IMG/VR virus record: IMGVR_UViG_2565956714_000003
Strand: one strand, 5' to 3'
Length of the DNA stretch: 32,066 nt
DNA from: a virus
Lineage: Duplodnaviria > Heunggongvirae > Uroviricota > Caudoviricetes
How positions within the stretch are numbered: position 1 is the stretch's first letter; each line of letters starts with the position of its first letter. The position numbers were made by a program, and so were the translations under genes. The notes beneath the pieces were generated by a model. The model was not told the origin of the DNA and did not search any database. It worked only from the letters and a program-made list of their open reading frames with translations. This document shows, one piece after another, positions 1 through 20,401 of the stretch.

Positions 1-1164
1 TTACGCCTTCTTTATATCCTCCATAATTCCAGAGTGGGACATATTTGGGACATTATCACCAAAAATGTCGTCTATTTTCCTCGCATGCTCTGTCAAATGA
101 TTAGGCGCAAGGTGAGCATACCTACGAACCATTTCTATGGACTCCCATCCGCCCATTTCCTGAAGCACTGATAATGGGACGCCTGACTGAATCAGCCAGC
201 TTGCCCAGGTGTGTCTGAGGTCATGGAAACGGAAATCTTCAATTCCTGCACGACGACAAGCTGATAGCCATGATGTCTTGCTGTCGATGCGCATCTTCCT
301 GACCGCAGGCGTTAATGTTCCATCTGCTCGCTTAGCCGCCTTGGTATGTACAAACACCCATTTGTGATGCTTGCCTATTTGATCACGCAACACTTTACAG
401 GCGGTATCGTTCAGCGCCACACCAATGGCGCGGTTTGATTTGCTCTCTTCTGGATTCACCCAGGCAACTCGTCGCTGCATGTCGATTTGTTGCCATTCCA
501 GATTTATGATGTTCGACTTTCTCAGACCAGTTGCCAGCGCAAACTTGACGACAGATTTCAGTGGTTCGGGGCACTCATCAATAAGGCGTTTTGCTTCCTC
601 CTTTTCCAGCCATCTGACTCGCTTGTTTCTGACCGCTGGTATCTTGATGACAGGCGCTTTTTCCAGCCACTTCCAGTCGCGTTCTGCAGCACGGAGAATG
701 GCCTTTATCATGGCAAGATGCTTTGCCTTTGTCTGAGTTGATACTGGCTTTGGTTCATAAACAGGCGGTTCTTTACCTTTCCTGATGGCGGCCTGAACTT
801 TCTGTTTCCATATTTCTTTCGTCTTTCTGTTATGCATTCTGCTTACAGCAGAGTAAATCTTTGCCTCCGAGATATCTTTAAGCCTTATACCCTCAAAATG
901 TTCAAGCCAGAACTCAATCCGGCTTTTATCTGAATCGAGAGATTTTTTATCAGCTTTTTCCTCAAGCCATCTTAGGCAGGCCTCTTCAAAAGTGACATCA
1001 GGTAAATCCCCTAGCTTTTCTACTCGCCAGAGTTCTGCTTTTCGCTTGTCGTGCAACTCCTGAGCTTGCCGCTTGTCCTTTGTGCCAAGAGATTCCTTAA
1101 TTCGTTTCCCGCCCGGGAGCGAATACGAGGCATACCATATTTCATTTCTGCGGAAGAGTGACAT
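1..1164 (-). CDS. int: Phage integrase, tyrosine recombinase (P22/DLP12 IntD type)
   Basis: 387-aa ORF; C-terminal HDLRHT...RRYAHL catalytic motifs (H-x-x-R, Y); RBS GAGGAAAG before ATG at 1164; stop codon at 1..3. Confidence 0.93.
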
Positions 1165-3321: not shown

Positions 3322-4103
3322 GCTGCCACCTTCTGCTCAGTGGCTTTCTGTTTCAGGAATCCAAGAGCTTTCACTGCTTCGGCCTGTGTCAGTTCTGACG
3401 ATGCGCGAATGTCGCGGCGAAATATCTGGGAACAGAGCGGCAATAAGTCGTCATCCCATGTTTTATCCAGGGCGATCAGCAGAGTGTTAATCTCCTGCAT
3501 GGTTTCATCGTTAACCGGAGTGATGTCGCGTTCTGGCTGACGTTCTGCAGTGTATGCAGTATTTTCGACAATGCGCTCGGCTTCATCCTTGTCATAGATA
3601 CCAGCAAATCCGAAGGCCAGACGGGCACACTGAATCATGGCTTTATGCCGTAACATCCGTTTGGGATGCGACTGCCACGGCCCCGTGATTTCTCTGCCTT
3701 CGCGGGTTTTGAATGGTTCGCGGCGGCATTCATCCATCCATTCGGTAACGCAGATCGGATGATTACGGTCCTTGCGGTAAATCCGGCATGTACAGGATTC
3801 ATTGTCCTGCTCAAAGTCCATGCCATCAAACTGCTGGTTTTCATTGATGATGCGGGACCAGCCATCAACGCCCACCACCGGAACAATGCCGTTCTGCTTA
3901 TCAGGGAAGGCGTAAATTTCTTTCGTCCACGGATTAAGGCCGTACTGGTTGGCGACGATCAGCAATGCGATGAACTGCGCATCGCTGGTATCACCTTTAA
4001 ATGCCGTCTGGCGAAGAGTGGTGATCAGTTCCTGTGGGTCGACAGAATCCATGCCGACACGTTCAGCCAGCTTCCCTGCCAGCGTTGCGAGTGCTGTACT
4101 CAT
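3318..4103 (-). CDS. bet: Lambda Bet (Red beta) single-strand annealing protein
   Basis: 261-aa ORF near-identical to lambda Bet ([38 protein letters not shown]...); ATGA overlap with exo. Confidence 0.97.
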
Positions 4104-4108
4104 CCGTT

Positions 4109-4405
4109 TTATACCTCTGAATCAATATCAACCTGGTGGTGAGCAATGGTTTCAACCATGTACCGGATGTGTTCTGCCATGCGCTCCTGAAACTCAACAT
4201 CGTCATCAAACGCACGGGTAATGGCTTTTTTGCTGGCCCCGTGGCGTTGCAAATGATCGATGCATAGCGATTCAAACAGGTGCTGGGGCAGGCCTTTTTC
4301 AATGTCGTCTGCCAGTTCTGCCTCTTTCTCTTCACGGGCGATCTGCTGGTAGTAACGCGCCCAGCTCTGAGCCTCAAGACGATCCTGAATGTAATAAGCG
4401 TTCAT
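4109..4405 (-). CDS. gam: Lambda Gam (RecBCD inhibitor), 98-aa form
   Basis: [37 protein letters not shown]... matches lambda Gam; RBS CAGGAG; an in-frame stop lies upstream, so only the short form is encoded. Confidence 0.95.
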
Positions 4406-4480
4406 GGCTGAACTCCTGAAAATGGCTGTGAAAATATCGCCCGCGAAATGCCAGGCTGATTAGGAAAACAGGAAAGGGGA

Positions 4481-4687
4481 TTAGCGATTCAGGCCGTTAC
4501 CGCGTCCGTCGAGAAAAACTTCCACGAGCAAATCACGGGTATAAGTGCGCTCGATGCCGCGATGCAGATAAAGCCGTCCGCGTAAATTAGCTGATGCAGT
4601 CCAGGTACCATCTTTGTGTTTGACCAGCATTCCTGGCATGACCGCGCCGCGATTAACGGTCTGCGTTCCGTAATGTTGATGAACCAT
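4481..4687 (-). CDS. Hypothetical early protein (68 aa) at the kil/cIII position of the leftward operon
   Basis: [32 protein letters not shown]... with strong RBS AGGAG 7 nt before ATG at 4687; the ORF track extends it to 4771 (96 aa) with a weaker start. Confidence 0.5.
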
Positions 4688-4959
4688 AAAAACTCCTGCC
4701 CGTAAGCTGGGCTGCTGAACATATAGAGACTTCTGCGCGTATTCAGGCGGTGGATGGCCGCCGGTTGTCATAACTAAGCCGCCTCGTTGAAGCGACTAAG
4801 GTATGAAATGTTGAGTTGATTTCAGCTGGTCACACCGACGTTCACGCGTCCGTTTCACCCCTCGCACTCCCCGAAGCCTGCTGAAATTCAAACTGCGGAT
4901 CTAAGCGGTCATCGCAACGGTGAATCAGGTGGTTGCCGTATCGTTGTGTTGTTGCGATG

Positions 4960-5045
4960 AACTTATTTAAAACTATAGTTGTTTTACCGTCAACAACAAA
5001 AGTTGTTTTATTGGTTGTTTTAGATATAACTGGTTGTATTTAGGA
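4960..5045 (-). promoter_or_regulatory. Candidate OL/pL operator-promoter region for the leftward early operon
   Basis: Cluster of the operator heptamer shared with OR: AACAAC-AAAA-GTTGTT palindrome 4992..5007, TGGTTGT at 5012..5018 and 5031..5037, plus palindrome AACTATAGTT 4971..4980. Confidence 0.5.
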
Positions 5046-5131
5046 TGGATTTATTTTGTGACTTGAATCGCATAGCGATAACTGAAGCGAGGTTATGGTG
5101 GTTTTTTTAACGGTGTGTGTGATGAGGGGAG

Positions 5132-5161
5132 GGCAAAAGAAAACCCGGCACGGTGACCGGG
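5132..5161 (-). terminator. Rho-independent terminator-like hairpin downstream of cI
   Basis: Stem CCCGG/CCGGG (5144..5148 / 5157..5161) with 8-nt loop, followed on the minus strand by UUUUCUUUUG (plus strand CAAAAGAAAA 5134..5143). Confidence 0.5.
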
Positions 5162-5282
5162 ATTCTTACGCCGTTAGGTAAAGATATTATTGCGGTGGCT
5201 TAATATTACTACCTAGAGCAAAGATAGGAATTAGTTCTTTACTGAATGAGCACAATGCCCAGTTGATAATTTTTAATTGGTA

Positions 5283-5972
5283 CTACCCATGCTTCCTATA
5301 TGTCTGCGGCATGCTCCCAATAACCTTACCGAAGATGAACACCCGGTTCATCTCGTCTTTCTCGATCGGGTCCCACGGTGAGTAGCTTTTGTTATCAGAG
5401 ATGACCAGCAGCTTATCCTTCATCATTTGCAGGCGCTTTACATGGGCTGTGTCGTCGTACAGAAACGCATAGATACCATCACCGTCGAAAGATTTAACTG
5501 TGATATCAACGAACAGCAGATCACCTGGTTCGATCGTTCCTGACATGCTGTCACCACGCACGTTAATGATGCGGATATTTTCCGCCTTCCTACCATCGAA
5601 CATATGACGAGCATCGTCAAACGAGTACTCAACCGAGCGTAGAACTTCTACAAACTCACGGTTGATGACTCCCGGCCCAGCACTGACTTCTATATCAAGA
5701 ACGTCAATCTTGAAGTATTTGGAATGGCTGACAGTTGATTGTATTGGTTGCACTGTACTGTCTGACATATTTCCAACGCCAGAAGATAACCATTCTGCGC
5801 GCACACCCAAAGCGTTCGCGATCTCCACGATTTTAGTTGTTTGATTAGCTTTCCCTGTTTCGATTTTCTGAATAGCAGCTTGGCTAACCCCGACCAAATC
5901 CCCAAGCGCCTTTTGTGTAAGGCCTCGCGCTAATCTGGCTTCTTTAAGTCTTTCTGAGAGTGTTGTTTTCAT
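5283..5972 (-). CDS. cI: CI-type prophage repressor (HTH_XRE N-domain, LexA/S24 peptidase-like C-domain)
   Basis: ORF with HTH LTQKALGDLVGVSQAAIQKIETG, an Ala-Gly (SAGPG) candidate autocleavage site, and GDSM...VKRL Ser-Lys dyad motifs; divergent from cro; start assigned to Met at 5972, while the track ORF reads through the operators to 6038. Confidence 0.85.
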   Translation of the reverse strand: MKTTLSERLKEARLARGLTQKALGDLVGVSQAAIQKIETGKANQTTKIVEIANALGVRAEWLSSGVGNMSDSTVQPIQSTVSHSKYFKIDVLDIEVSAGPGVINREFVEVLRSVEYSFDDARHMFDGRKAENIRIINVRGDSMSGTIEPGDLLFVDITVKSFDGDGIYAFLYDDTAHVKRLQMMKDKLLVISDNKSYSPWDPIEKDEMNRVFIFGKVIGSMPQTYRKHG

Positions 5973-6076: not shown

Positions 6077-6307
6077 ATGAACCCAGCTATCAAAACAGCG
6101 ATCAATATCGTTGGTTCACAAAAGAAACTGGGCGCTGCTTGCGAAGTTTCACAGCAGGCCGTCTATAAGTGGCTTCACAACAAAGCAAAGGTATCCCCTG
6201 AACATGTCGGCAGCATTGTTACGGCTACTGGTGGAGTAGTGAAGGCATACCAGATTCGCCCGGATCTTCCGAAGTTGTTTCCACACACCGAAAAGAACGC
6301 AGCTTAA
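6077..6307 (+). CDS. cro: Cro-like repressor (YdaS-family small HTH protein)
   Basis: 76-aa ORF divergent from cI; RBS GGAGG; HTH-like segment KKLGAACEVSQQAVYKWL. Confidence 0.8.
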   Translation: MNPAIKTAINIVGSQKKLGAACEVSQQAVYKWLHNKAKVSPEHVGSIVTATGGVVKAYQIRPDLPKLFPHTEKNAA

Positions 6308-6319
6308 ATTTCCATTTCA

Positions 6320-6332
6320 CGCTCTTTAACAA
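6320..6332 (+). promoter_or_regulatory. boxA-like antitermination motif downstream of cro
   Basis: CGCTCTTTAACAA matches the boxA consensus (lambda CGCTCTTA; rrn-type TGCTCTTTAACAA) at the position nutR occupies in lambda; no obvious boxB hairpin follows. Confidence 0.45.
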
Positions 6333-6376
6333 TAAGCAATCAACTTAACAGTCAATTCAAACTAAAGGAGTCAATT

Positions 6377-6916
6377 ATGCAACCACTTACATACCAACAG
6401 ACTAGCGGATTTAGCCCGACTGCGGTGATAAATCGTTCTCAAACAAAACAGGTGCCAGGCCACGAAAAAATCCGTGATGCCGTCCGCGCTTGGTCGGCTG
6501 AAGATAATCAGGATGTCGTTGCCACACTCATTGTGAATGAGTATCGGGAGCAGGGCGGCGGCACCATCGATTTCCCTGATGATGTCAGCCGTGCACGCCA
6601 GAAGCTGTTCCGCTTCCTCGATAACAAATTCGATTCTGAAAAATACCGAAATAACGTGCGTGAACTGACCCCGGCAATTCTGGCGGTACTACCGCTGGAA
6701 TATCGCGGTTACCTGGTTGAGCAGGATAGCTTCATGGCTAGGTTGGCTGAAATGGAAAAGGAACTCAGTGAGGCAAAACAGGCTGTCATTCTCAACGCAC
6801 CACGCCACCAGAAACTGAAGGAAATTAGTGAAGGTATTGTGTCGATGTTTCGTGTGGACCCAGATCTGGCTGGTCCATTGATGGCGATGGTTACTACCAT
6901 GCTGGGGGCGATATGA
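6377..6916 (+). CDS. CII-position regulatory protein, YdaT-like (179 aa)
   Basis: ORF with RBS AAGGAG between cro and O; motifs EYREQGGG and LTPAILAVLPLEYR resemble Rac YdaT as I remember it. Confidence 0.55.
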   Translation: MQPLTYQQTSGFSPTAVINRSQTKQVPGHEKIRDAVRAWSAEDNQDVVATLIVNEYREQGGGTIDFPDDVSRARQKLFRFLDNKFDSEKYRNNVRELTPAILAVLPLEYRGYLVEQDSFMARLAEMEKELSEAKQAVILNAPRHQKLKEISEGIVSMFRVDPDLAGPLMAMVTTMLGAI

Positions 6917-7002
6917 CAGGTTCAGAAATGGCGAAAGCCGGTCTGCTGGAACAGAACCGACTTTCAGGTGCAAATCGTAACACACTCATTGCGGGAGGAA
7001 TT

Positions 7003-7932
7003 ATGGCAAACACTGCTGAGATATTCAATTTTCCAGTGCCGGATGCGGCACAAAAGGAGCCGCGCGTGGCAGATCTCGATGATGGTTATACGCGCATTGC
7101 AAATGAGTTGCTGGAAGCTGTGATGCTGGCCGGATTAACACAGCACCAGCTTCTGGTCTTCCTGGCTGTCATGCGCAAAACATATGGCTTTAATAAAAAA
7201 CTGGATTGGGTGAGCAACGAGCAACTTTCCGAGTTGACCGGGATATTGCCGCACAAGTGTTCTGCTGCAAAAAGTGTTCTGGTAAAGCGTGGGATTTTTA
7301 TTCAGAGCGGGCGGAATATCGGCATTAATAATGTGGTCAGTGAATGGTCAACATTACCCGAATCAGGTAAGAAAAATAAAGTTTACCTGAAAGAGGTAAA
7401 TTTACCTGAATCAGGTAAGAAAAGTTTACCCAAATCAGGTAAAGGCACTTACCCGAATCAGGTAAACACAAAAGACAAACTAACAAAAGACAATATAAAA
7501 CCTTATTCGTCCGAGAATTCTGGCGAATACTCTGACCAGCCAGAAAACGACCTTCCTGTGGTGAAACCGGATGCTGCGATTCAGAGCGGCAGCAAGTGGG
7601 GGACAGCAGAAGACCTGACCGCCGCAGAGTGGATGTTTGACATGGTGAAGACCATCGCGCCATCAGCCAGAAAACCGAATTTTGCAGGGTGGGCTAACGA
7701 TATCCGCCTGATGCGTGAACGTGACGGACGTAACCACCGCGACATGTGCGTGCTGTTCCGCTGGGCATGCCAGGACAACTTCTGGTCCGGTAACGTGCTA
7801 AGTCCGGCCAAACTCCGTGACAAGTGGACCCAACTCGAAATCAACCGTAACAAGCAACAGGCTGGAGTGACAGCCGGAAAATCAAAACTGGACCTGACAA
7901 ACACTGACTGGATTTATGGGGTGGATTTATGA
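7003..7932 (+). CDS. O: Replication initiator O (non-lambda N-terminal iteron-binding domain, lambda-type C-terminal domain)
   Basis: C-terminal ~100 aa near-identical to lambda O (...WMFDMVKTIAPSARKPNFAGWANDIRLMRERDGRNHRDMCVLFRWACQDNFW...); N-terminal half differs from lambda O; RBS GGGAGG before ATG 7003; the track ORF starts upstream at 6913. Confidence 0.9.
   Translation: MANTAEIFNFPVPDAAQKEPRVADLDDGYTRIANELLEAVMLAGLTQHQLLVFLAVMRKTYGFNKKLDWVSNEQLSELTGILPHKCSAAKSVLVKRGIFIQSGRNIGINNVVSEWSTLPESGKKNKVYLKEVNLPESGKKSLPKSGKGTYPNQVNTKDKLTKDNIKPYSSENSGEYSDQPENDLPVVKPDAAIQSGSKWGTAEDLTAAEWMFDMVKTIAPSARKPNFAGWANDIRLMRERDGRNHRDMCVLFRWACQDNFWSGNVLSPAKLRDKWTQLEINRNKQQAGVTAGKSKLDLTNTDWIYGVDL
7354..7465. 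repeat. Replication origin iterons (five ~17-bp repeats) inside the O coding region, followed by an A-rich segment
   Basis: TTACCCGAATCAGGTAA (7354..7370), TTACCTGAAAGAGGTAA (7383..7399), TTACCTGAATCAGGTAA (7402..7418), TTACCCAAATCAGGTAA (7426..7442), TTACCCGAATCAGGTAA (7449..7465); each has an internal TTACC...GGTAA dyad; A-rich stretch 7466..7510. Confidence 0.85.
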
Positions 7933-8630
7933 AAAACATCGCCGCACAAATGGTTAACTTTGACTGTGAGCAGATGCGTCGGATCGCCAACAACATGCCG
8001 GAACAGTACGACGAAAAGCCACAGGTACAGCAGGTAGCGCAGATCATCAACGGTGTGTTCAGCCAGTTACTGGCAACTTTCCCGGCGAGCCTGGCTAACC
8101 GTGACCAGAATGAACTGAACGAAATCCGCCGCCAGTGGGTTCTGGCTTTCCGGGAAAACGGGATCACCACAATGGAACAGGTTAACGCAGGAATGCGCGT
8201 AGCCCGTCGGCAGAATCGACCATTCCTGCCATCACCCGGGCAGTTTGTCGCCTGGTGCCGGGAAGAAGCATCCGTTACCGCCGGGCTGCCAAACGCCAGC
8301 GAGCTGGTTGATATGGTTTACGAGTATTGCCGGAAGCGCGGGCTGTATCCGGATGCAGAGTCTTATCCGTGGAAATCAAACGCGCACTACTGGCTGGTTA
8401 CCAACCTGTATCAGAACATGCGGGCCAATGCGTTGACTGACGCGGAATTACGGCGCAAGGCTGCCGATGAACTGTCCTGTATGACCGCACGAATTAACCG
8501 TGGTGAGGCTATACCTGAACCAGTAAAACAACTTCCTGTCATGGGCGGTAGACCTCTAAATCGTGCACAGACTCTGGCGAAGATCGCAGAAATCAAAGCT
8601 AAGTTTGGGCTGAAAGGAGCAAGGGTATGA
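7929..8630 (+). CDS. P: Replication protein P (DnaB helicase loader)
   Basis: 233-aa ORF near-identical to lambda P (MKNIAAQMVNFDCEQMRRIANNMPEQYDEKPQVQQVAQIINGVFSQLLATFPASLANRDQNE...); ATGA overlap with O. Confidence 0.97.
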   Translation: MKNIAAQMVNFDCEQMRRIANNMPEQYDEKPQVQQVAQIINGVFSQLLATFPASLANRDQNELNEIRRQWVLAFRENGITTMEQVNAGMRVARRQNRPFLPSPGQFVAWCREEASVTAGLPNASELVDMVYEYCRKRGLYPDAESYPWKSNAHYWLVTNLYQNMRANALTDAELRRKAADELSCMTARINRGEAIPEPVKQLPVMGGRPLNRAQTLAKIAEIKAKFGLKGARV

Positions 8631-8929
8631 CGGGCAAAGAGGCAATTATTCATTACCTGGGGACTCATAAGAACTTCTGTGCGCAGGACGTTGCCGCGGT
8701 AACAGGCGCAACCGTAACCAGCATAAATCAGGCTGCGGCTAAAATGGCGCGGGCAGGAATCCTGGTCGTTGATGGTAAGGTCTGGCGAACGGTGTATTAC
8801 CGGTTCGCTACCAGAGAAGAACGGGAAGGAAAGGTGAGCACGAATCTGATTTTTAAGGAGTGTCGCCAGAGTGCCGCGATGAAACGGGTATTGAGGGTAT
8901 ATAAAAGAACATCAATGGGTACACAATGA
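8627..8929 (+). CDS. ren: Ren protein (lambda-like)
   Basis: ORF MTGKEAIIHYLGTHKNFCAQDVAAVTGATVTSINQAAAKMARAGILVVDGKVWRTVYYRFATREEREGK... matches lambda Ren. Confidence 0.9.
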   Translation: MTGKEAIIHYLGTHKNFCAQDVAAVTGATVTSINQAAAKMARAGILVVDGKVWRTVYYRFATREEREGKVSTNLIFKECRQSAAMKRVLRVYKRTSMGTQ

Positions 8930-8996
8930 TGAAACAGGTGAGTTGAGTTCAAACTGTAGTACAATTCTCTCCAGTTTGAACAGGAAAGAATATGCT

Positions 8997-9329
8997 ATGA
9001 ACCCTTATATTTATCTTGGTGGTGCAATACTTGCAGAGGTCATTGGTACAACCTTAATGAAGTTTTCAGAAGGTTTTACACGGTTATGGCCATCTGTTGG
9101 TACAATTATTTGTTATTGTGCATCATTCTGGTTATTAGCTCAGACGCTGGCTTATATTCCTACAGGGATTGCTTATGCTATCTGGTCAGGAGTCGGTATT
9201 GTCCTGATTAGCTTACTGTCATGGGGACTTTTCGTCCAACGGCTGGACCTGCCAGCCATTATAGGCATGATGTTGATTTGTGCCGGTGTGTTGGTTATTA
9301 ATCTATTGTCACGAAGCACACCACATTAA
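8997..9329 (+). CDS. emrE: Small multidrug resistance (SMR) efflux transporter EmrE
   Basis: 110-aa ORF MNPYIYLGGAILAEVIGTTLMKFSEGFTRLWPSVGTIICYCASFWLLAQTLAYIPTGIAYAIWSGVGIVL... recognised as EmrE (four TM helices, conserved membrane Glu in the first helix). Confidence 0.95.
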   Translation: MNPYIYLGGAILAEVIGTTLMKFSEGFTRLWPSVGTIICYCASFWLLAQTLAYIPTGIAYAIWSGVGIVLISLLSWGLFVQRLDLPAIIGMMLICAGVLVINLLSRSTPH

Positions 9330-9359
9330 AAATAATTTGTTTCTAAACTACTAAAATAT

Positions 9360-9400
9360 GGAGGCTCTTATATTTATATGAGCCTCGTTTTATGCTTTTT
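9360..9400 (+). terminator. Rho-independent terminator downstream of emrE
   Basis: Stem GGAGGCTC/GAGCCTC with AT-rich loop, followed by GTTTTATGCTTTTT. Confidence 0.6.
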
Positions 9401-9585
9401 GTTAATGTCTTTATTTTTTTATGTATTCTTTTGTGCTTTCAAGATTATGGCGTAAGAAAATTGCAATACGATTATTGTTGTATATTCAAGATAATGTGAC
9501 CTTAATTGTCTTTTTAAATAAAAATTAAACAAAAATTATATCCCACCACTAATGTTTATAAAAGCATACGTTAGCAGGTGTCACC

Positions 9586-11112
9586 ATGAAAAAAGCCATA
9601 GCATATATGCGATTTTCATCACCAGGTCAGATGTCTGGCGACTCATTAAACCGACAGAGAAGACTTATTGCTGAATGGTTAAAGGTAAATAGTGATTATT
9701 ATCTTGATACCATAACATATGAAGATTTAGGATTAAGTGCATTCAAAGGAAAGCATGCACAATCAGGAGCTTTTTCGGAATTTTTAGATGCTATAGAGCA
9801 TGGTTATATATTGCCAGGAACTACATTGTTAGTTGAAAGTCTGGACAGACTTTCAAGAGAAAAAGTCGGTGAAGCGATTGAACGTCTGAAATTGATTTTG
9901 AATCACGGTATTGATGTTATAACTCTTTGCGACAATACAGTCTATAATATTGACTCTTTGAATGAGCCATATTCATTAATAAAAGCCATACTTATAGCAC
10001 AAAGGGCAAATGAAGAAAGCGAGATAAAGTCAAGTCGGGTTAAATTATCATGGAAGAAAAAACGGCAGGATGCACTGGAATCAGGTACGATTATGACGGC
10101 GTCTTGTCCGAGATGGCTCTCCTTAGATGACAAAAGAACGGCTTTTGTTCCAGACCCCGACAGGGTGAAAACTATTGAGCTAATTTTTAAACTCAGGATG
10201 GAAAGGCGCTCATTGAATGCAATAGCCAAGTATTTAAATGATCATGCTGTAAAGAATTTCTCAGGAAAAGAAAGTGCATGGGGACCTTCTGTAATTGAAA
10301 AATTATTAGCGAATAAAGCTCTGATAGGTATATGCGTACCTTCATATCGTGCAAGAGGGAAAGGAATAAGTGAAATCGCGGGCTATTATCCCAGAGTCAT
10401 ATCAGATGATTTGTTTTACGCTGTACAGGAAATTCGGTTGGCACCTTTTGGTATTAGCAATAGTAGCAAGAATCCTATGCTAATAAATCTACTTCGAACA
10501 GTTATGAAGTGTGAGGCTTGTGGTAATACCATGATTGTTCATGCGGTATCTGGAAGTTTGCATGGCTATTATGTTTGTCCGATGAGAAGATTACATCGAT
10601 GTGACAGGCCATCAATAAAAAGAGATTTGGTTGATTATAATATCATTAATGAATTGCTTTTTAATTGTAGCAAAATTCAACCAGTTGAAAACAAGAAAGA
10701 TGCTAATGAAACTTTAGAGTTAAAAATTATTGAGCTTCAGATGAAAATTAATAATTTAATCGTTGCATTGTCTGTCGCGCCTGAAGTTACCGCTATAGCA
10801 GAGAAAATAAGACTATTAGATAAGGAATTACGAAGGGCTTCGGTATCATTGAAAACTTTGAAGAGTAAAGGTGTAAATTCATTCAGTGATTTTTATGCTA
10901 TTGACTTAACCAGTAAAAATGGACGAGAGTTATGCCGTACACTTGCCTATAAAACATTCGAAAAAATCATAATTAATACGGATAATAAAACCTGTGATAT
11001 CTATTTTATGAATGGCATTGTTTTTAAACACTATCCTTTAATGAAAGTAATATCCGCCCAGCAGGCGATAAGTGCTCTCAAATATATGGTTGATGGTGAG
11101 ATTTATTTCTAA
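9586..11112 (+). CDS. ybcK: Large serine recombinase (resolvase/invertase-type catalytic domain plus recombinase and Cys-rich zinc-ribbon region)
   Basis: 508-aa ORF; N-terminal AIAYMRFSSPGQ matches the serine-recombinase active-site motif Y-x-R-x-S-x3-Q; Cys cluster CEACGN...CPMRRLHRCDRP; gene body AT-rich. Confidence 0.85.
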   Translation: MKKAIAYMRFSSPGQMSGDSLNRQRRLIAEWLKVNSDYYLDTITYEDLGLSAFKGKHAQSGAFSEFLDAIEHGYILPGTTLLVESLDRLSREKVGEAIERLKLILNHGIDVITLCDNTVYNIDSLNEPYSLIKAILIAQRANEESEIKSSRVKLSWKKKRQDALESGTIMTASCPRWLSLDDKRTAFVPDPDRVKTIELIFKLRMERRSLNAIAKYLNDHAVKNFSGKESAWGPSVIEKLLANKALIGICVPSYRARGKGISEIAGYYPRVISDDLFYAVQEIRLAPFGISNSSKNPMLINLLRTVMKCEACGNTMIVHAVSGSLHGYYVCPMRRLHRCDRPSIKRDLVDYNIINELLFNCSKIQPVENKKDANETLELKIIELQMKINNLIVALSVAPEVTAIAEKIRLLDKELRRASVSLKTLKSKGVNSFSDFYAIDLTSKNGRELCRTLAYKTFEKIIINTDNKTCDIYFMNGIVFKHYPLMKVISAQQAISALKYMVDGEIYF

Positions 11113-11310
11113 ATAATGATCTTGGATTTTAAGTTATGCTATGATGATAAAGTGCAAGACAGAATTAATTATCTTTAACGAAACTTAATGGGTAATTACT
11201 TTGTTTGCTCCCACAAGCGAGTTTTGTACGGCTGTATTGGGGTAGTAAATGAGCTATACAATCTTAATCATTTGTTAGGTGAGAACTCTTGGTCGCAGAT
11301 TCAAATACTG

Positions 11311-11360
11311 AAAATACGTGACAAATTATTATGAGCAAAATGGTGTATGTCACGTATTTT
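11311..11360. repeat. 50-bp palindromic element: 13-bp perfect inverted repeats flanking a 24-bp spacer
   Basis: AAAATACGTGACA (11311..11323) and its exact reverse complement TGTCACGTATTTT (11348..11360) in the AT-rich ybcK-ybcL intergenic region. Confidence 0.8.
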
Positions 11361-11575
11361 GAATGGTAGGTTAAAAAATAACACCGACTTTCGTAGGTAT
11401 TACTAATAATAAAGCAGAGTTTTTAATAGTATCAATGTGCTTTGTGTATATTGTGGCAAATAATTGGGTTGGGGGTACAATTGTGATTGCTTTTGCATGA
11501 ACATTGCGCCTTTATGCATAATGAGATAAAGGAATATCAAATAAAATAACGATAGGTCATAACAAAGAGGTTTTT

Positions 11576-12127
11576 ATGAAAACACTTATCGTTTCAACTG
11601 TATTGGCATTCATAACATTTTCTGCGCAGGCTGCAGCATTTCAGGTCACTAGTAATGAAATAAAAACAGGAGAGCAACTTACAACGTCTCATGTCTTTTC
11701 TGGATTTGGGTGTGAAGGTGGTAATACATCGCCCTCATTAACCTGGTCTGGTGTTCCTGAAGGTACCAAAAGCTTTGCCGTAACTGTATATGATCCAGAT
11801 GCACCTACAGGCAGTGGTTGGTGGCATTGGACTGTTGTTAATATTCCAGCAACAGTAACATATTTGCCCGTTGATGCAGGAAGACGTGATGGAACAAAAC
11901 TGCCGACTGGTGCTGTTCAAGGCCGAAATGATTTTGGCTATGCTGGGTTTGGTGGCGCATGTCCTCCTAAAGGAGATAAACCACATCATTACCAGTTTAA
12001 AGTATGGGCTCTAAAAACTGAAAAGATTCCTGTAGATTCTAACTCCAGCGGAGCGTTAGTTGGTTATATGCTTAATGCTAATAAAATCGCAACCGCTGAG
12101 ATAACACCAGTTTATGAGATAAAGTAG
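11576..12127 (+). CDS. ybcL: Periplasmic PEBP/RKIP-family protein (UPF0098)
   Basis: 183-aa ORF with signal peptide MKTLIVSTVLAFITFSAQA and PEBP-like core (YDPDAP...GWWHW...HHYQFKVWAL). Confidence 0.9.
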   Translation: MKTLIVSTVLAFITFSAQAAAFQVTSNEIKTGEQLTTSHVFSGFGCEGGNTSPSLTWSGVPEGTKSFAVTVYDPDAPTGSGWWHWTVVNIPATVTYLPVDAGRRDGTKLPTGAVQGRNDFGYAGFGGACPPKGDKPHHYQFKVWALKTEKIPVDSNSSGALVGYMLNANKIATAEITPVYEIK

Positions 12128-12136
12128 GGTGAGAGT

Positions 12137-12934
12137 ATGCTGGCAAGAGGTAAGACTAACTTAAAGATCGAAGAAATACGGATGCATAAACATCATGAGA
12201 TTCATAGGGTTAAGCCTCTTATGCCAGCTTTGTGTCGTATCCGTCAGGGAAAGAAAGTTATCAATTGGGAGACGCATACTTTAACTGTTGATAATAATCA
12301 AATAATATTATTTCCTTGTAGTTATGAATTTTATATTGAGAATTATCCTGAAGCAGGGCTTTATCTTGCAGAAATGCTTTACTTACCCATTGATTTAATT
12401 GAGAGGTTCCAAAAACTTTATACGGTAACTGATCAAATACGTAACAAAACAAGTTTCTTTTTACCTCAGAATCCTGAGTTAATATATTGTTGGGAGCAAC
12501 TAAAAACATCTGTTTCCCGAGGCTTCTCAACTAAAATTCAGGAGCACTTAGCAATGGGCGTTCTACTTTCGTTAGGAGTGAATCATGTTAATCATTTACT
12601 TTTATCATATAGTAAACAATCATTGATAAGTCGTTGTTATAACCTGCTGCTATCCGAACCCGGCACAAAATGGACAGCAAACAAGGTTGCACGATATCTC
12701 TACATTTCTGTTTCTACATTACATCGCCGTCTAGCAAGCGAGGGGGTAAGTTTCCAAAGTATACTGGACGATGTGAGGTTAAATAATGCGTTGTCTGCTA
12801 TACAAACGACGGTAAAACCTATAAGCGAGATTGCCAGAGAAAATGGTTATAAGTGTCCTTCTCGTTTTACTGAAAGATTTCATAATCGTTTTAATATAAC
12901 ACCAAGAGAGATAAGAAAAGCTTCCAGAGAGTAA
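12137..12934 (+). CDS. ybcM: AraC-family transcriptional regulator
   Basis: 265-aa ORF starting 9 nt after the ybcL stop (operon-like); C-terminal AraC-type HTH region ([21 protein letters not shown]...[18 protein letters not shown]). Confidence 0.85.
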
Positions 12935-12998
12935 AAGTGTTTTAAGAAGGAGCAATTCTATCGATTTTGATTTTGGGAAATCAACACGGCATAATTAT

Positions 12999-13027
12999 GT
13001 CACCGGAGCCTGAACAACTCCGGTGAC
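12999..13027 (+). other. Perfect 10-bp stem-loop between ybcM and ylcH
   Basis: GTCACCGGAG (12999..13008) ... CTCCGGTGAC (13018..13027) with 9-nt loop; no U-run follows. Confidence 0.5.
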
Positions 13028-13050
13028 TTCTGCGCTAAACGGGGACGTTT

Positions 13051-13152
13051 ATGCGCACATACAATCCAACCTCTCTTCTCCATTCACAGATGCAGAAATG
13101 CACCTGCGATATTTTGCATCCAGCGTTTGATCTCTGCGGAGGTGAAGCGTGA
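13051..13152 (+). CDS. ylcH: Small protein YlcH-like (33 aa)
   Basis: Short [36 protein letters not shown] with RBS GGGGA; its stop overlaps the ybcN GTG start region. Confidence 0.55.
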
Positions 13153-13604
13153 ACCTCCCACAAGATGGTATCAAATTGCATCGCGGTAACTTCACCGCTA
13201 TCGGTCGGCAGATCCAGCCTTATCTGGAGAACGGCAAATGCTTTCGCATGGTGCTTAAACCGTGGCGCGAGAGACGCAGTCTTTCCCAGAATGCACTCAG
13301 CCACATGTGGTACAGCGAAATCAGTGAATACCTCATCAGCAGGGGTAAAACGTTCGCCACTCCAGCTTGGGTAAAAGATGCTCTCAAACACACATATCTC
13401 GGTTATGAAACCAAAGACCTGGTTGATGTCGTAACCGGTGATATCACCACTATCCAGTCGTTACGCCATACCTCCGATCTTGATACCGGAGAGATGTATG
13501 TCTTCCTGTGTAAGGTTGAAGCCTGGGCGATGAATATTGGTTGCCATCTGACTATTCCGCAGAGCTGCGAGTTCCAGCAGCTCCGCGACAAGCAGGAGGC
13601 GTAA
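13149..13604 (+). CDS. ybcN: NinB-like recombination protein (YbcN)
   Basis: 151-aa ORF with GTG start preceded by GGAGG; recognised as the NinB/YbcN family. Confidence 0.85.
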
Positions 13605-14638: not shown

Positions 14639-15022
14639 ATGCGTGATATTCAGATGGTTCTTGAGCGTTGGGGAGCGTGGGCGGCTAATAATCATGAAGA
14701 TGTGACCTGGTCGTCCATTGCCGCCGGTTTTAAGGGATTAATTACTTCAAAAGTAAAATCTCGCCCGCAATGTTGTGACGATGACGCGATGATTATTTGC
14801 GGGTGCATGGCCCGTCTGAAAAAGAACAACAGCGATTTGCACGATTTATTAGTAGATTATTATGTAGTCGGTATGACATTCATGTCACTGGCAGGTAAGC
14901 ATTGCTGCTCTGATGGTTATATCGGGAAAAGGTTACAGAAGGCTGAGGGCATAATTGAAGGGATGTTAATGGCATTAGATATCCGGTTAGAGATGGATAT
15001 CGTTGTTAATAACTCTAATTAA
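14639..15022 (+). CDS. quuD: Late-gene antiterminator Q (QuuD type)
   Basis: 127-aa [27 protein letters not shown]... with Cys-rich region ([16 protein letters not shown]); RBS GGAG; lies immediately before the late region. Confidence 0.85.
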
Positions 15023-15034
15023 TATGCCAATTGT

Positions 15035-16140: not shown

Positions 16141-17197
16141 GGCTTTGTTGAATAAATCAGATTTCGGGTAAGTCTCCCCCGTAGCGGGTTGTGTTTTCAG
16201 GCAATACGCACGCTTTCAGGCATACCTGCTTTCGTCATTTTGTTCAGCGCTCGTACCAGGGCCATAGCCTCCGCAACCTGACCATCGTAGTCACGCAGCG
16301 TCAGTGAACCCCCGAACAGCTGTTTTACCCGGTACATCGCCGTTTCCGCTATCGAGCGACGGTTGTAATCTGTTGTCCATTTCCACCGCGCATTACTCCC
16401 GGTCATTCGCTGATTAGCCACTGCACGGTTACGGTCTGCATATTCACCGGGCCAGTAACCCGCACCTTTTCGGGGAGGGATAAGCGCGCTGATTTTCTTA
16501 CGCCGCAGTTCATCGTGACATAGCCGGGTATCGTAAGCGCCATCGGCGGCGGCTGACCTGATTTTCCGGTGGGTTTGCCGGATTAACCCGGGGAAGGCCT
16601 CTGAGTCCGTAACGTTGTTCAGCGACAGGTCAGCGCAGATGATTTCATGTGTTTTACTGTCAACGGCGAGATGCAGCTTACGCCAGATACGGCGGCGTTC
16701 CTGGCCATGCTTTTTGACTTTCCACTCGCCTTCACCGAAGACCTTCAGCCCGGTGGAATCAATTACCAGGTGTGCGATTTCACCCCGGGTGGGCGTTTTG
16801 AAACTGACATTAACCGACTTTGCCCGCCTGCTGACACAGCTGTAATCCGGGCAGCGTAGCGGAACGTTCATCAGAGAAAAAATGGAATCAATAAAGCCCT
16901 GCGCAGCGCGCAGGGTCAGCCTGAATACGCGTTTAATGACCAGCACAGTCGTGATGGCAAGGTCAGAATAGCGCTGAGGTCTGCCTCGTGAAGAAGGTGT
17001 TGCTGACTCATACCAGGCCTGAATAGCTTCATCATCCAGCCAGAAAGTTATGGAGCCACGGTTGATGAGGGCTTTATTGTAGGTGGGCCAGTTGGTGATT
17101 TTGAACTTTTGCTTTGCCACGGAACGGTCTGCGTTGTCGGGAAGATGCGTGATCTGATCCTTCAACTCAGCAAAAGTTCGATTTATTCAACAAAGCC
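16141..17197 (-). mobile_element. IS903/IS102-type insertion sequence (IS5 family), complete, 1057 bp
   Basis: Perfect 18-bp terminal inverted repeats GGCTTTGTTGAATAAATC (16141..16158) and GATTTATTCAACAAAGCC (17180..17197); 9-bp direct target duplication; one transposase ORF. Confidence 0.9.
16197..17165 (-). CDS. IS903-type transposase (DDE)
   Basis: 322-aa ORF filling the IS; start 32 bp inside the right inverted repeat. Confidence 0.85.
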   Translation of the reverse strand: MKDQITHLPDNADRSVAKQKFKITNWPTYNKALINRGSITFWLDDEAIQAWYESATPSSRGRPQRYSDLAITTVLVIKRVFRLTLRAAQGFIDSIFSLMNVPLRCPDYSCVSRRAKSVNVSFKTPTRGEIAHLVIDSTGLKVFGEGEWKVKKHGQERRRIWRKLHLAVDSKTHEIICADLSLNNVTDSEAFPGLIRQTHRKIRSAAADGAYDTRLCHDELRRKKISALIPPRKGAGYWPGEYADRNRAVANQRMTGSNARWKWTTDYNRRSIAETAMYRVKQLFGGSLTLRDYDGQVAEAMALVRALNKMTKAGMPESVRIA

Positions 17198-17206: not shown

Positions 17207-17963
17207 TAGTATCACCATCATCTGCATCATTAGAGGAGAAGTAGTGCTTGGCATTAACTTTCCCGTACAGATCCAGCTTGTTACTGTCTTTATTATAAAT
17301 TTCAGCTGCCTGAGCAGACATCGCCATCAGTACTGATGCAGCTACAGCAGAAATTGCCACTGTTAATTTTTTCATCGTGAGCCCTTTTTTTTGAACTATT
17401 ATTAAAAAATGATGTCACTGCGCGATAAATATTCATCTAATCAATGTGATTATTTCAAGATGTAAGTTTTAGTTTCTCATTTAATTTGTGAAGTAGATCT
17501 CTATTTTTATCTGAACTTTTTCTATCGAAACCTATTTATGGCTCTTATTTGAACAAAAATAAACCTATTAGCTAATTTATATTAATGGTTGTTATTTATG
17601 GAGGTTCTATAATTCGGCAGTTTAATTTAAATCAACTAAAAATAACGTCTGAAATTATTTATTGGTTATTTGTTGAGGTTTTCTTATGTATTTGTGGTGG
17701 TGTTTTGAACACTCGGTAGCATTCTCATAAATATCATTCAGTGGTTTACGTACGTAAAAAATTGGTTATGCTGTTAAGAGTGGTTACTTCGTCACACAGC
17801 TTAAACCCGCCGTCGAGCTGGTTTTTCCATTTTTTGAGTCTCGATATTAGCTGATAACTCAATACCTGAGTTATTCACTGACTCCGAGTCTGTTACGTTT
17901 CTGCTTTTTTGCGATACGTTGTATTCCCTCAATTTACACCCGCTTTGTCTGCGAGGTGGGGTT

Positions 17964-20149: not shown

Positions 20150-20401
20150 GTGATATGTAGATGATAATTATTATCATTTTTCGGGTCCTTTCCGGCGATC
20201 CGACAGGTTACGGGGCGGCGACCTCGCGGGTTTTCGCTATTTATGAAAATTTTCCGGTTTAAGGCGTTTCCGTTCTTCTTCGTCATAACTTAATGTTTTT
20301 ATTTAAAATACCCTCTGAAAAGAAAGGAAACGACAGGTGCTGAAAGCGAGCTTTTTGGCCTCTGTCGTTTCCTTTCTCTGTTTTTGTCCGTGGAATGAAC
20401 A
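20150..20401. promoter_or_regulatory. Lambda-type cos site (cosQ, cosN, cosB); 12-nt cohesive end GGGCGGCGACCT at 20213..20224
   Basis: Sequence ...GATGATAATTATTATCATTTTTCGGGTCCTTTCCGGCGATCCGACAGGTTACG | GGGCGGCGACCTCGCGGGTTTTCGCTATTTATGAAAATTTTCCGG... matches the lambda right-end/left-end junction as I recall it; lies directly upstream of Nu1. Confidence 0.9.

Follow-up and report, generated by a model that had tools for sequence, protein, structure and literature searches.

Here we analysed the DNA between the genes ren and ybcN in a virus genome of IMG/VR (record IMGVR_UViG_2565956714_000003; 32,066 nt, called the window at its full length). The whole window is an intact, full-length lambdoid prophage of DLP12 type with head and tail genes. 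In alignment it is matched from end to end by a prophage of Escherichia coli strain A8 adjoining tRNA-Arg (argU), and the infectious phage PhiR34_1 has the same organisation and is nearly identical to it. Integration of DLP12 through IntD at argU is known, and the argU context is observed in the matching genome. The ren–ybcN interval (8930-13148; 4,219 bp) carries emrE, ylcJ, ybcK, ybcL and ybcM, of which ybcK encodes a large serine recombinase (LSR), and it was divided into five segments (A to E).

Gene content and composition of the ren–ybcN interval

The features of the interval and its flanks are as follows (ORF, open reading frame; dG, folding free energy; E, E-value).

1..1164, minus strand: intD, tyrosine integrase of the prophage (window position 1 aligns to position 9259 of locus L004, the A8 intD coding sequence beside tRNA-Arg)
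8627..8929, plus strand: ren, left flank of the island (ORF; matching records name it "protein ren" or "exclusion protein Ren")
8930-9337: segment A, with emrE; in prophages and, at 92% identity, at a chromosomal locus without ybcK
8997..9329, plus strand: emrE, small multidrug resistance (SMR) efflux protein (Pfam Multi_Drug_Res, E 3e-34)
9338-11121: segment B, with terminator, ylcJ and ybcK; in lambdoid prophages and phages only, at 95-100% identity
9338..9585, plus strand: AT-rich leader of ybcK (GC 0.31-0.33), reported Rho/NusG-dependent terminator (PMC4150792)
9361..9401, plus strand: intrinsic-terminator-like hairpin and U tract after emrE (RNA fold dG -13.8 kcal/mol, z -3.5)
9379..9528, plus strand: ylcJ, small frameshifted ORF (intact with 49 aa in phage PhiR34_1)
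9586..11112, plus strand: ybcK, intact LSR of 508 aa (Pfam Resolvase, Recombinase and Zn_ribbon_recom)
11122..11433, plus strand: segment C, non-coding joint, exclusive to islands with both ybcK and ybcLM
11311..11360, no strand: perfect 13-nt inverted repeat with 24-nt spacer, candidate site (0 of 200 Markov simulations reach 13 nt)
11434-12966: segment D, with ybcLM; common to the chromosomal locus at 90.6% identity
11474..11508, no strand: approximate site bound by YbcM ahead of ybcLM (placed by way of K-12 coordinates)
11576..12127, plus strand: ybcL, periplasmic PEBP-family protein (Pfam PBP, E 3e-42)
12137..12934, plus strand: ybcM, regulator of the AraC type that shares an operon with ybcL (Pfam matches at residues 185-261: HTH_18, E 1e-16; HTH_AraC, E 1e-6)
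12967..13148, plus strand: segment E, conserved entry to the nin genes, common to all variants including the chromosomal remnant
12967-12995, plus strand: promoter-like TTGATT-17-CATAAT in segment E (promoter scan)
12999-13027, plus strand: 10-bp GC-rich hairpin in segment E (dG -18.3, z -4.7)
13051-13152, plus strand: 33-aa ORF in segment E, overlapping the ybcN start by 4 nt (a small coding sequence is annotated in matching records)
13149..13604, plus strand: ybcN, first gene of the nin region, right flank (ORF; "DNA base-flipping protein YbcN" in matching records)

The interval is AT-rich, as the first-pass annotation of this DNA had described it. Its GC content is 0.367 (0.356 for the span 9330-12960), compared with about 0.51 in the flanks (0.506 for O-P-ren and 0.517 for ybcN..rusA), and the GC content at third codon positions (GC3) is 0.25-0.35 in emrE, ybcK, ybcL and ybcM versus 0.48-0.59 in the neighbouring phage genes. 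The DNA of the interval is thus compositionally foreign. The length of about 3.6 kb given in that annotation has to be corrected to 4.2 kb, and emrE, which it counted as a member of the island, is present together with its terminator but lies at 8997-9329, outside the proposed start at 9330. The proposed gene content itself (emrE, a 508-aa ybcK with the motif YMRFSSPGQ, a PEBP-family ybcL and an AraC-type ybcM) is confirmed by ORFs and Pfam.

An alignment check for the ends of the island and for direct repeats at them had also been proposed. The ends could be placed, at the stop codon of ren and at the conserved promoter and hairpin ahead of ybcN, but neither repeats nor symmetry resembling an attachment (att) site were found at 8929, 9337/9338, 11433/11434 or 12967. 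Rfam gave no match in 8500-13500, and PADLOC gave none for Ren, EmrE, YbcK, YbcL, YbcM and a 48-aa ORF. The emrE–ybcK–ybcL–ybcM cluster is already named and annotated: YbcK and YbcL are 100% identical to proteins of E. coli K-12 MG1655 and are therefore known genes; as textbook y-genes of K-12, the genes of the cluster do not make a new entity.

PHROG classes emrE as "moron, QacE". The gene has its own terminator, as had been proposed, in which the stem (9361-9386) is followed by the U tract GUUUUAUGCUUUUUG; the hairpin is part of segment B and does not occur with the chromosomal copy of emrE. A consensus scan does not have this hairpin among its listed sites. In the overlapping ylcJ, the first 12 or so codons are out of frame relative to the PhiR34_1 copy, and ylcJ of strain A8 is annotated as pseudo.

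Between ybcL and ybcM there is a gap of 9 nt, in line with the operon arrangement noted earlier and with the "operon ybcLM" of PMC8464067, where YbcM autoregulation and a link to oxidative stress are reported, a ybcM mutant being more sensitive to H2O2. The supplement of that paper gives a YbcM site from chromatin immunoprecipitation with exonuclease digestion (ChIP-exo) at 570015-570048 (signal-to-noise ratio 357; nearest gene ybcL). This site was mapped to the window through position 11575, which equals 570116 in a K-12-derived record. The Protein Data Bank (PDB) structure 1FUX corresponds to YbcL residues 20-183 (E 1.6e-112), and its start at residue 20 fits a cleaved signal peptide. A host-interaction role of the island had been suggested from work on neutrophils. 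Such literature exists (PMC4810123, review), but it attributes the suppression of neutrophil migration to uropathogenic YbcL and not to laboratory or commensal variants, and the window encodes the K-12 variant (100% identical).

YbcK, the second recombinase of the prophage

With intD at one end and a complete YbcK inside, the prophage does carry a second recombinase beside its tyrosine integrase. The Pfam matches of YbcK reach E-values of 5.5e-19 (Resolvase), 2e-14 (Recombinase) and 8e-8 (Zn_ribbon_recom). YMRFSSPGQ corresponds to residues 7-15, in which S11 falls in an invariant column. An alignment of 24 family members spanning 30-60% identity shows no variation at R9, S11, Q15, D87, R88 and R91, and conservation of 90% or more at the cysteines of the zinc ribbon (C309, C312, C331 and C339). 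The family profile matches SPbeta SprA and the catalytic domain of TP901-1, and the SprA alignment spans the coiled-coil region; a PDB search with the single YbcK sequence gave no match, and only the family profile reached SprA.

The AlphaFold2 (AF2) model of YbcK has a mean confidence score (pLDDT) of 80 and runs from the catalytic domain through a long helix, the recombinase domain and the zinc ribbon to a coiled-coil hairpin (helices 370-397 and 402-427) and a small C-terminal domain. In Foldseek it comes closest to serine integrases of full length (those of SPbeta, PhiC31 and Bxb1), and PHROG 95 likewise places YbcK with integrases. The resolvase-recombinase-zinc-ribbon architecture with an intact catalytic serine domain, for which the first-pass annotation had proposed a check, is therefore seen in Pfam, the family alignment, the AF2 model and Foldseek alike. 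With the catalytic serine and arginines, the recombinase domain and four-cysteine zinc ribbon, and the coiled coil, YbcK is a large serine recombinase.

All six E. coli phage and prophage copies of ybcK compared are intact, with ratios of non-synonymous to synonymous substitution rates (dN/dS) of 0.05-0.13 at a dS of up to 0.17, so the gene is under strong purifying selection. This bears on the reading of ybcK as a functionless fossil of a former integrase. An identifiable site was not found for YbcK and the gene is silenced in K-12, as such a fossil would have it, but the intact copies, the low dN/dS and the conservation of catalytic residues and zinc-ribbon cysteines at 30-60% family identity make this very unlikely.

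The position of ybcK is not that of an element's own integrase. It is internal to the prophage, about 9.6 kb from the intD end, and always between emrE and the slot before ybcN, rather than at an end of the integrated element. According to PMC4150792, the untranslated region upstream of it holds a Rho-dependent terminator, and mutation of rho or nusG de-represses ybcK. Since it lies behind this terminator in the early-right operon, ybcK would be expressed under antitermination. Moreover, Hfq was found bound at the ybcK region in a polyphosphate-dependent manner (PMC10954037), and over-expression of ybcK raised sabinene tolerance (PMC7181518).

Distribution of the modules and the slot after ybcK

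We surveyed the five segments in 5,426 complete E. coli genomes. The emrE-ylcJ-ybcK part is present in about 1,399 of them, with a constant left context and a median copy number of one. About half of these genomes also have ybcLM, giving 668-675 genomes with the full island and about 700 with ybcK and no ybcLM. The best match to the full island is one collinear piece, and the sole two-piece matches observed contained an IS3 insertion. In the infectious phages with ybcK (PhiR34_1, Turner, 4A7 and 1W), ybcLM is optional. By contrast, about 2,560 of the 5,426 genomes carry emrE and ybcLM without ybcK, at 90-91% identity, between fliE and yedK and not within any intact prophage.

An example of the ybcK-less locus comes from the chromosome of E. 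coli GPEC617 (L001 8001-10640, flanked by fliE and yedK), which matches the window at 8920-9337, 11434-13151, 14924-15024 and 17335-17699. The homology starts at about the ren stop (8920) and extends to the ybcN start codon, and farther on the locus retains a 3'-terminal piece of quuD (100 nt) as well as the 5' and upstream region of nmpC, from which we conclude that it is a heavily deleted DLP12-like prophage. In this remnant ybcK, the nin genes, Q and the porin gene are gone, while emrE, ybcL and ybcM have a dN/dS of 0.05-0.10 and so are still under purifying selection. The point where ybcK is deleted holds 17 unrelated nt and no repeat. The remnant locus adjoins an IS200/IS605 element.

The mapping shows that the recombinase and the so-called host-interaction genes are separable modules, and nearly half of the surveyed E. 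coli genomes have emrE and ybcLM in a decayed remnant without ybcK. Because ybcK is kept in infectious phages and lost from a remnant that retains emrE and ybcLM, the pattern suggests that ybcK serves the phage, and that emrE and ybcLM serve the host.

These data speak to the proposal that the island was once an independent integrative element nested in the prophage, with either the whole island or the 2.1-kb ybcK segment (9338-11433) inserted by YbcK and perhaps still able to excise. In its favour, the LSR is intact and selected, the ybcK segment is exactly the part missing from the chromosomal emrE-ybcLM locus, and in Pantoea a 1.8-kb recombinase-only unit occurs at 94% identity in two different contexts. 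However, recombinase and cargo are not co-inherited (about 700 against about 2,560 genomes), the four boundaries named above have neither repeats nor att-like symmetry, and the seemingly empty chromosomal site is a deleted prophage with unrelated nucleotides at the junction. Relatives without the island carry other genes at the position, leaving no clean empty site. Within the lineage of at least 95% identity ybcLM never occurs without segment C, so a natural excision product of the ybcK segment is not seen. Moreover, ybcK has one context in E. coli, and a YbcK relative of Kluyvera ascorbata lies 105 nt from a 33-nt ssrA duplication that looks more like the work of a tyrosine integrase, a point which is not decisive. 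We consider the nested element decidedly unlikely.

To describe the slot after ybcK, from its stop codon to segment E, 80 IMG/VR loci and six others were compared. Nine cargo states exist in these 86 loci, and ybcLM is one of them. Each of the remaining eight begins, past the ybcK stop, with a common stretch of at least about 66 nt, and most of these share a P22_AR_C remnant of about 420 nt before they diverge. Among the alternative cargos are an alpha/beta hydrolase, a protein of 260 aa rich in Cys, several small proteins and the abortive-infection defence protein BstA, which occupies the slot in 3 of the 86 loci (for example L170 12146-13090; PADLOC E 4e-121). In other related prophages, the whole ren–ybcN interval is filled with unrelated small genes. 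The ren-to-nin interval had been called a hot spot for accessory and defence genes, and at least nine cargos after ybcK, BstA included, bear this out.

The cassettes end at stop codons. At the far side of the slot the segment E motifs TTGATT..AATCAA..CATAAT are conserved and the spacers between them have diverged with each cassette, and no common repeat was seen at the cassette junctions among the slot variants compared. This pattern is expected from homologous or illegitimate recombination in conserved flanks rather than from site-specific cassette capture. With its GC shift, nine variants, the emrE terminator and a promoter region bound by YbcM, the interval fits a phage moron or accessory hot spot. 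As to segment E itself, its -35 hexamer pairs with AATCAA as a small palindrome, and the segment is retained even in the chromosomal remnant, which has no ybcN.

Segment C follows the full island in an all-or-none manner. It is found in 675 genomes and in the phages PhiR34_1, PhiR68_2 and PhiR70_1, where ybcK and ybcLM co-occur, and is missing from the ybcK-only phages and from the chromosomal emrE-ybcLM locus. The perfect palindrome within it (11311-11360) is statistically unusual and lies between ybcK and ybcL, which are the points in favour of an inversion or excision switch. In such a switch, YbcK would recombine the palindrome with another site and thereby control either ybcLM or the nin genes. 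However, no second copy of the half-site, or partner for it, was found in the 32-kb window, the palindrome is missing from all ybcK phages without ybcLM, and no inverted or split form exists among the full-island matches examined. Both the ybcLM promoter and the YbcM site are located downstream of it, in DNA that is also present in the chromosomal copy, which has no palindrome. Without a partner site in the window or a rearranged allele among these matches, the switch put forward in the first-pass annotation is extremely unlikely. We conclude that neither a nested element nor a switch is supported, because no att-like repeats were found at the island ends, no partner of the palindrome in the window, and no rearranged alleles among the matches examined.

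As RNA, the palindrome folds with a dG of -18.9 (z -3.5), and it is possibly an RNA hairpin or terminator. A role as the YbcM operator was considered and ruled out, as the mapped position of the ChIP-exo site (about 11474-11508) is some 115 nt downstream of it.

Relatives of YbcK, origin of the interval and known systems

Relatives of YbcK with 505-523 aa and 41-61% identity are spread across Enterobacterales and occur in three contexts. In the first one, the relative is the last gene after a tail-fibre assembly gene at a prophage end (Atlantibacter, Yersinia, Erwinia, Ewingella and Pantoea) and adjoins host genes or, in Yersinia, a second prophage. In the second one, found in Pantoea dispersa, Candidatus Pantoea alvi and Atlantibacter-like phages, it is part of a lambdoid prophage and lies between the replication genes and Q. 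The third comprises other mobile DNA, including a conjugative-type region. Both phage positions are classical cargo positions. An IMG/VR scan of complete phage genomes for distant relatives returned E. coli copies only. Invertible tail-fibre segments were considered for the relatives at prophage ends and rejected, as neither inverted repeats nor duplicated fibre segments were found there.

Relatives of 78-94% nucleotide identity in different contexts have in common only the ORF, 40-220 nt upstream and 0 to about 75 nt downstream. Together with the diversity of contexts (prophage ends, nin region, conjugative-type region) and with diverged repeats of the adjacent gene around the recombinase segment in four loci, this would suit a self-mobile minimal element, with the YbcK family made of IS-like (insertion sequence, IS) units of one recombinase gene that colonise cargo regions of prophages and conjugative elements. 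However, an alignment of the upstream regions has no conserved end motif or terminal repeat, no inverted repeat common to family members was found in either flank, and the context in E. coli is single and fixed. Gene-sized mosaic joints are normal in lambdoid phages. One of the four repeats also has another explanation. In L025, from an Atlantibacter-like lambdoid phage, an orphan 60-codon 5' fragment of a DUF1367 gene (7652-7851) precedes the recombinase and is 85% identical in DNA to the full downstream copy (10633-10831); L030 carries the same recombinase block without the repeat, which is why we regard the repeat as a scar of recombination between phages. We judge a self-mobile element improbable.

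The split DUF1367 gene was itself tried as an insertion signature and rejected, since the copies are only 85% identical and the L030 block has no repeat. The same replication-to-Q interval of L025 holds a SIR2_2 gene (3755-5695).

Several side observations were made around other relatives. In L047 the repeated gene is replication gene P (9281-9657 and 12216-12592), and L049 has diverged direct repeats around the recombinase segment (9273-9519 and 16149-16394); identities in these two loci range over 76-84%. In L012 (Citrobacter koseri), the relative lies between an intact 555-aa protein (6145-7812) and a fragmented second copy of it (10651-11573); the intact protein has a faint Shufflon_N match only, and the fragmented copy has a type IV pilin N-methylation motif. 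This region also holds TraD and MobA, and the recombinase is preceded by a tandem repeat with a 7-nt unit (TTGTTTC). In L019 (Kluyvera ascorbata), the 33-nt copy of the ssrA 3' end (9680-9712; 105 nt downstream of the relative) is followed by the native ssrA-downstream sequence, making it the far junction of an ssrA-inserted island; ARAGORN found no full tmRNA in the locus. We read this duplication as more typical of tyrosine-integrase islands, though not decisively so. Moreover, umuD/umuC or dinI adjoin YbcK-family genes in about one third of the contexts outside E. coli (L019, L025, L026/L027, L031, L032/L033 and L034), an adjacency that may reflect a shared cargo neighbourhood.

Taken together, we favour, at a probability of about 0.75, the reading that the ren–ybcN interval is a stack of separately acquired AT-rich morons in a recombination hot spot rather than a single element, and that YbcK is not the mover of the island. 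The first module is emrE with its own terminator, and the second ylcJ and ybcK, an intact LSR behind a Rho-terminated leader. The third is the variable slot, here filled by the 312-nt joint and ybcLM, an operon with reported autoregulation by YbcM and with a PEBP protein exported to the periplasm. The conserved promoter and hairpin segment leading into the nin genes is the fourth. Related phages would swap these modules through recombination, homologous or illegitimate, within the conserved flanks, breaking at the ends of genes, and the prophage as a whole integrates through IntD at argU. The anatomy, the mosaic spread of the modules, the selection on ybcK and the lack of sites and rearrangements are observed, while the way of exchange and the timing and role of YbcK are inferred. 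YbcK would then be an orphan recombinase retained by the phage and acting in trans on a site outside the island, most likely during phage development, when antitermination permits read-through.

Some points weigh against this reading. Action in trans is inferred from absence, as no substrate of YbcK was found. A selected recombinase lies directly upstream of a hypervariable slot and could have a role in its variability. The 50-bp palindrome (11311-11360) has a size and an outer-repeat geometry that we take to be roughly like those of a serine-integrase attP. In four loci (L012, L025, L047 and L049), the recombinase segment has diverged direct repeats of an adjacent gene on its two sides, and an explanation was found for L025 only. 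Finally, some relatives could be true integrases of their own prophages, the flanks covered being 8-10 kb.

The role of YbcK in the favoured stack of morons may be narrowed further if it is an auxiliary phage recombinase, that is, a second integrase or excisionase or an inter-element recombinase that benefits the phage and has its sites outside the island. Through it the phage could, for example, integrate at an alternative attB or recombine with competitors or with prophages resident in the host. This refines the stack of morons rather than competing with it, and we hold it as a tentative possibility, somewhat doubtful as it stands. It is consistent with the retention of ybcK in infectious phages and its loss in the host-domesticated remnant, with a dN/dS of 0.05-0.13, with the grouping in PHROG 95 and with relatives that are the last gene at prophage ends; the position in the early-right operon behind a Rho-dependent terminator would likewise make expression dependent on antitermination. 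On the other side, the genome survey has no E. coli prophage with ybcK at a host junction, PADLOC gave no match, and neither an att site nor a directionality factor was identified, directionality factors not being one sequence family.

A broader idea, which we rate as rather unlikely, is that YbcK and its Enterobacterales relatives form a new class of phage-carried orphan LSRs that provide a second recombination system for alternative integration or for capture and exchange in the slot. If so, they would be early-expressed accessory genes in prophages which already have a tyrosine integrase. A demonstrated substrate of YbcK would explain the role of a conserved recombinase of the best-studied bacterium, and perhaps give a new serine integrase active in enterobacteria.

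Other features of the window lie outside the interval. An insertion sequence of about 1.06 kb (16141-17197) interrupts the nmpC/ompD-like porin gene in its 5' part. Its terminal inverted repeats are imperfect, 33 nt long and start with GGCTTTGTTGAATAAATC, and it encodes a transposase of 322 aa on the minus strand. This insertion sequence is missing from strain A8 and PhiR34_1 and is presumably of the IS903/IS102 type. Replication gene O contains four direct repeats of about 22 nt (TTACCCGAATCAGGTAAGAAAA) at 7354-7470, which resemble the iterons of a lambda-type origin. A 25-nt inverted repeat with a 7-nt spacer and 84% complementarity lies at 20321-20377, near the start of the packaging genes.

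Among known systems, DLP12 of K-12 is the closest. Its gene order (ren–emrE–ylcJ–ybcK–ybcL–ybcM–ybcN) is that of the window, as is its attachment context, with intD beside argU. Besides the identical YbcK and YbcL, EmrE has 3 residue differences and YbcM has 2. However, DLP12 of K-12 is cryptic, whereas the prophage of the window has its full length, including the head and tail genes, and hardly differs from the infectious PhiR34_1; ren is intact in the window and interrupted by IS3 in K-12, while ylcJ is frameshifted and the porin gene carries the insertion sequence of about 1.06 kb (16141-17197) in the window.

The phage large serine integrases (SPbeta SprA, PhiC31, Bxb1 and TP901-1) have the same domain order as YbcK, and the nucleophilic serine and the arginines are conserved. 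The identity to YbcK is only 14-19%, however, and ybcK lies in the middle of a prophage with a separate tyrosine integrase, its family recurring in cargo positions, with no attP/attB, attL/attR or directionality factor identified for YbcK. Like the invertases Gin, Pin and Cin near tail-fibre genes, several YbcK relatives directly follow a tail-fibre assembly gene, but those invertases are small serine recombinases, and the surroundings of the relatives have no inverted repeats or duplicated fibre segments.

The likeness to integron capture is a recombinase gene directly upstream of a slot with many cassettes. In contrast to integrons, the recombinase here is of the serine rather than the tyrosine type, the cassette ends lack attI/attC-like repeats, each slot has one cassette, and the slot flanks diverge in a graded way, as homologous exchange predicts. 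The moron and defence hot spots of phages, such as those of BstA prophages, differ from the window in that its stack includes a constant, non-variable recombinase, and that ybcLM has no match to a known defence system (PADLOC). Like them, the window has unrelated AT-rich genes at one position between conserved genes, several of which have their own promoter or terminator, and BstA itself is one of the variants found in its slot.

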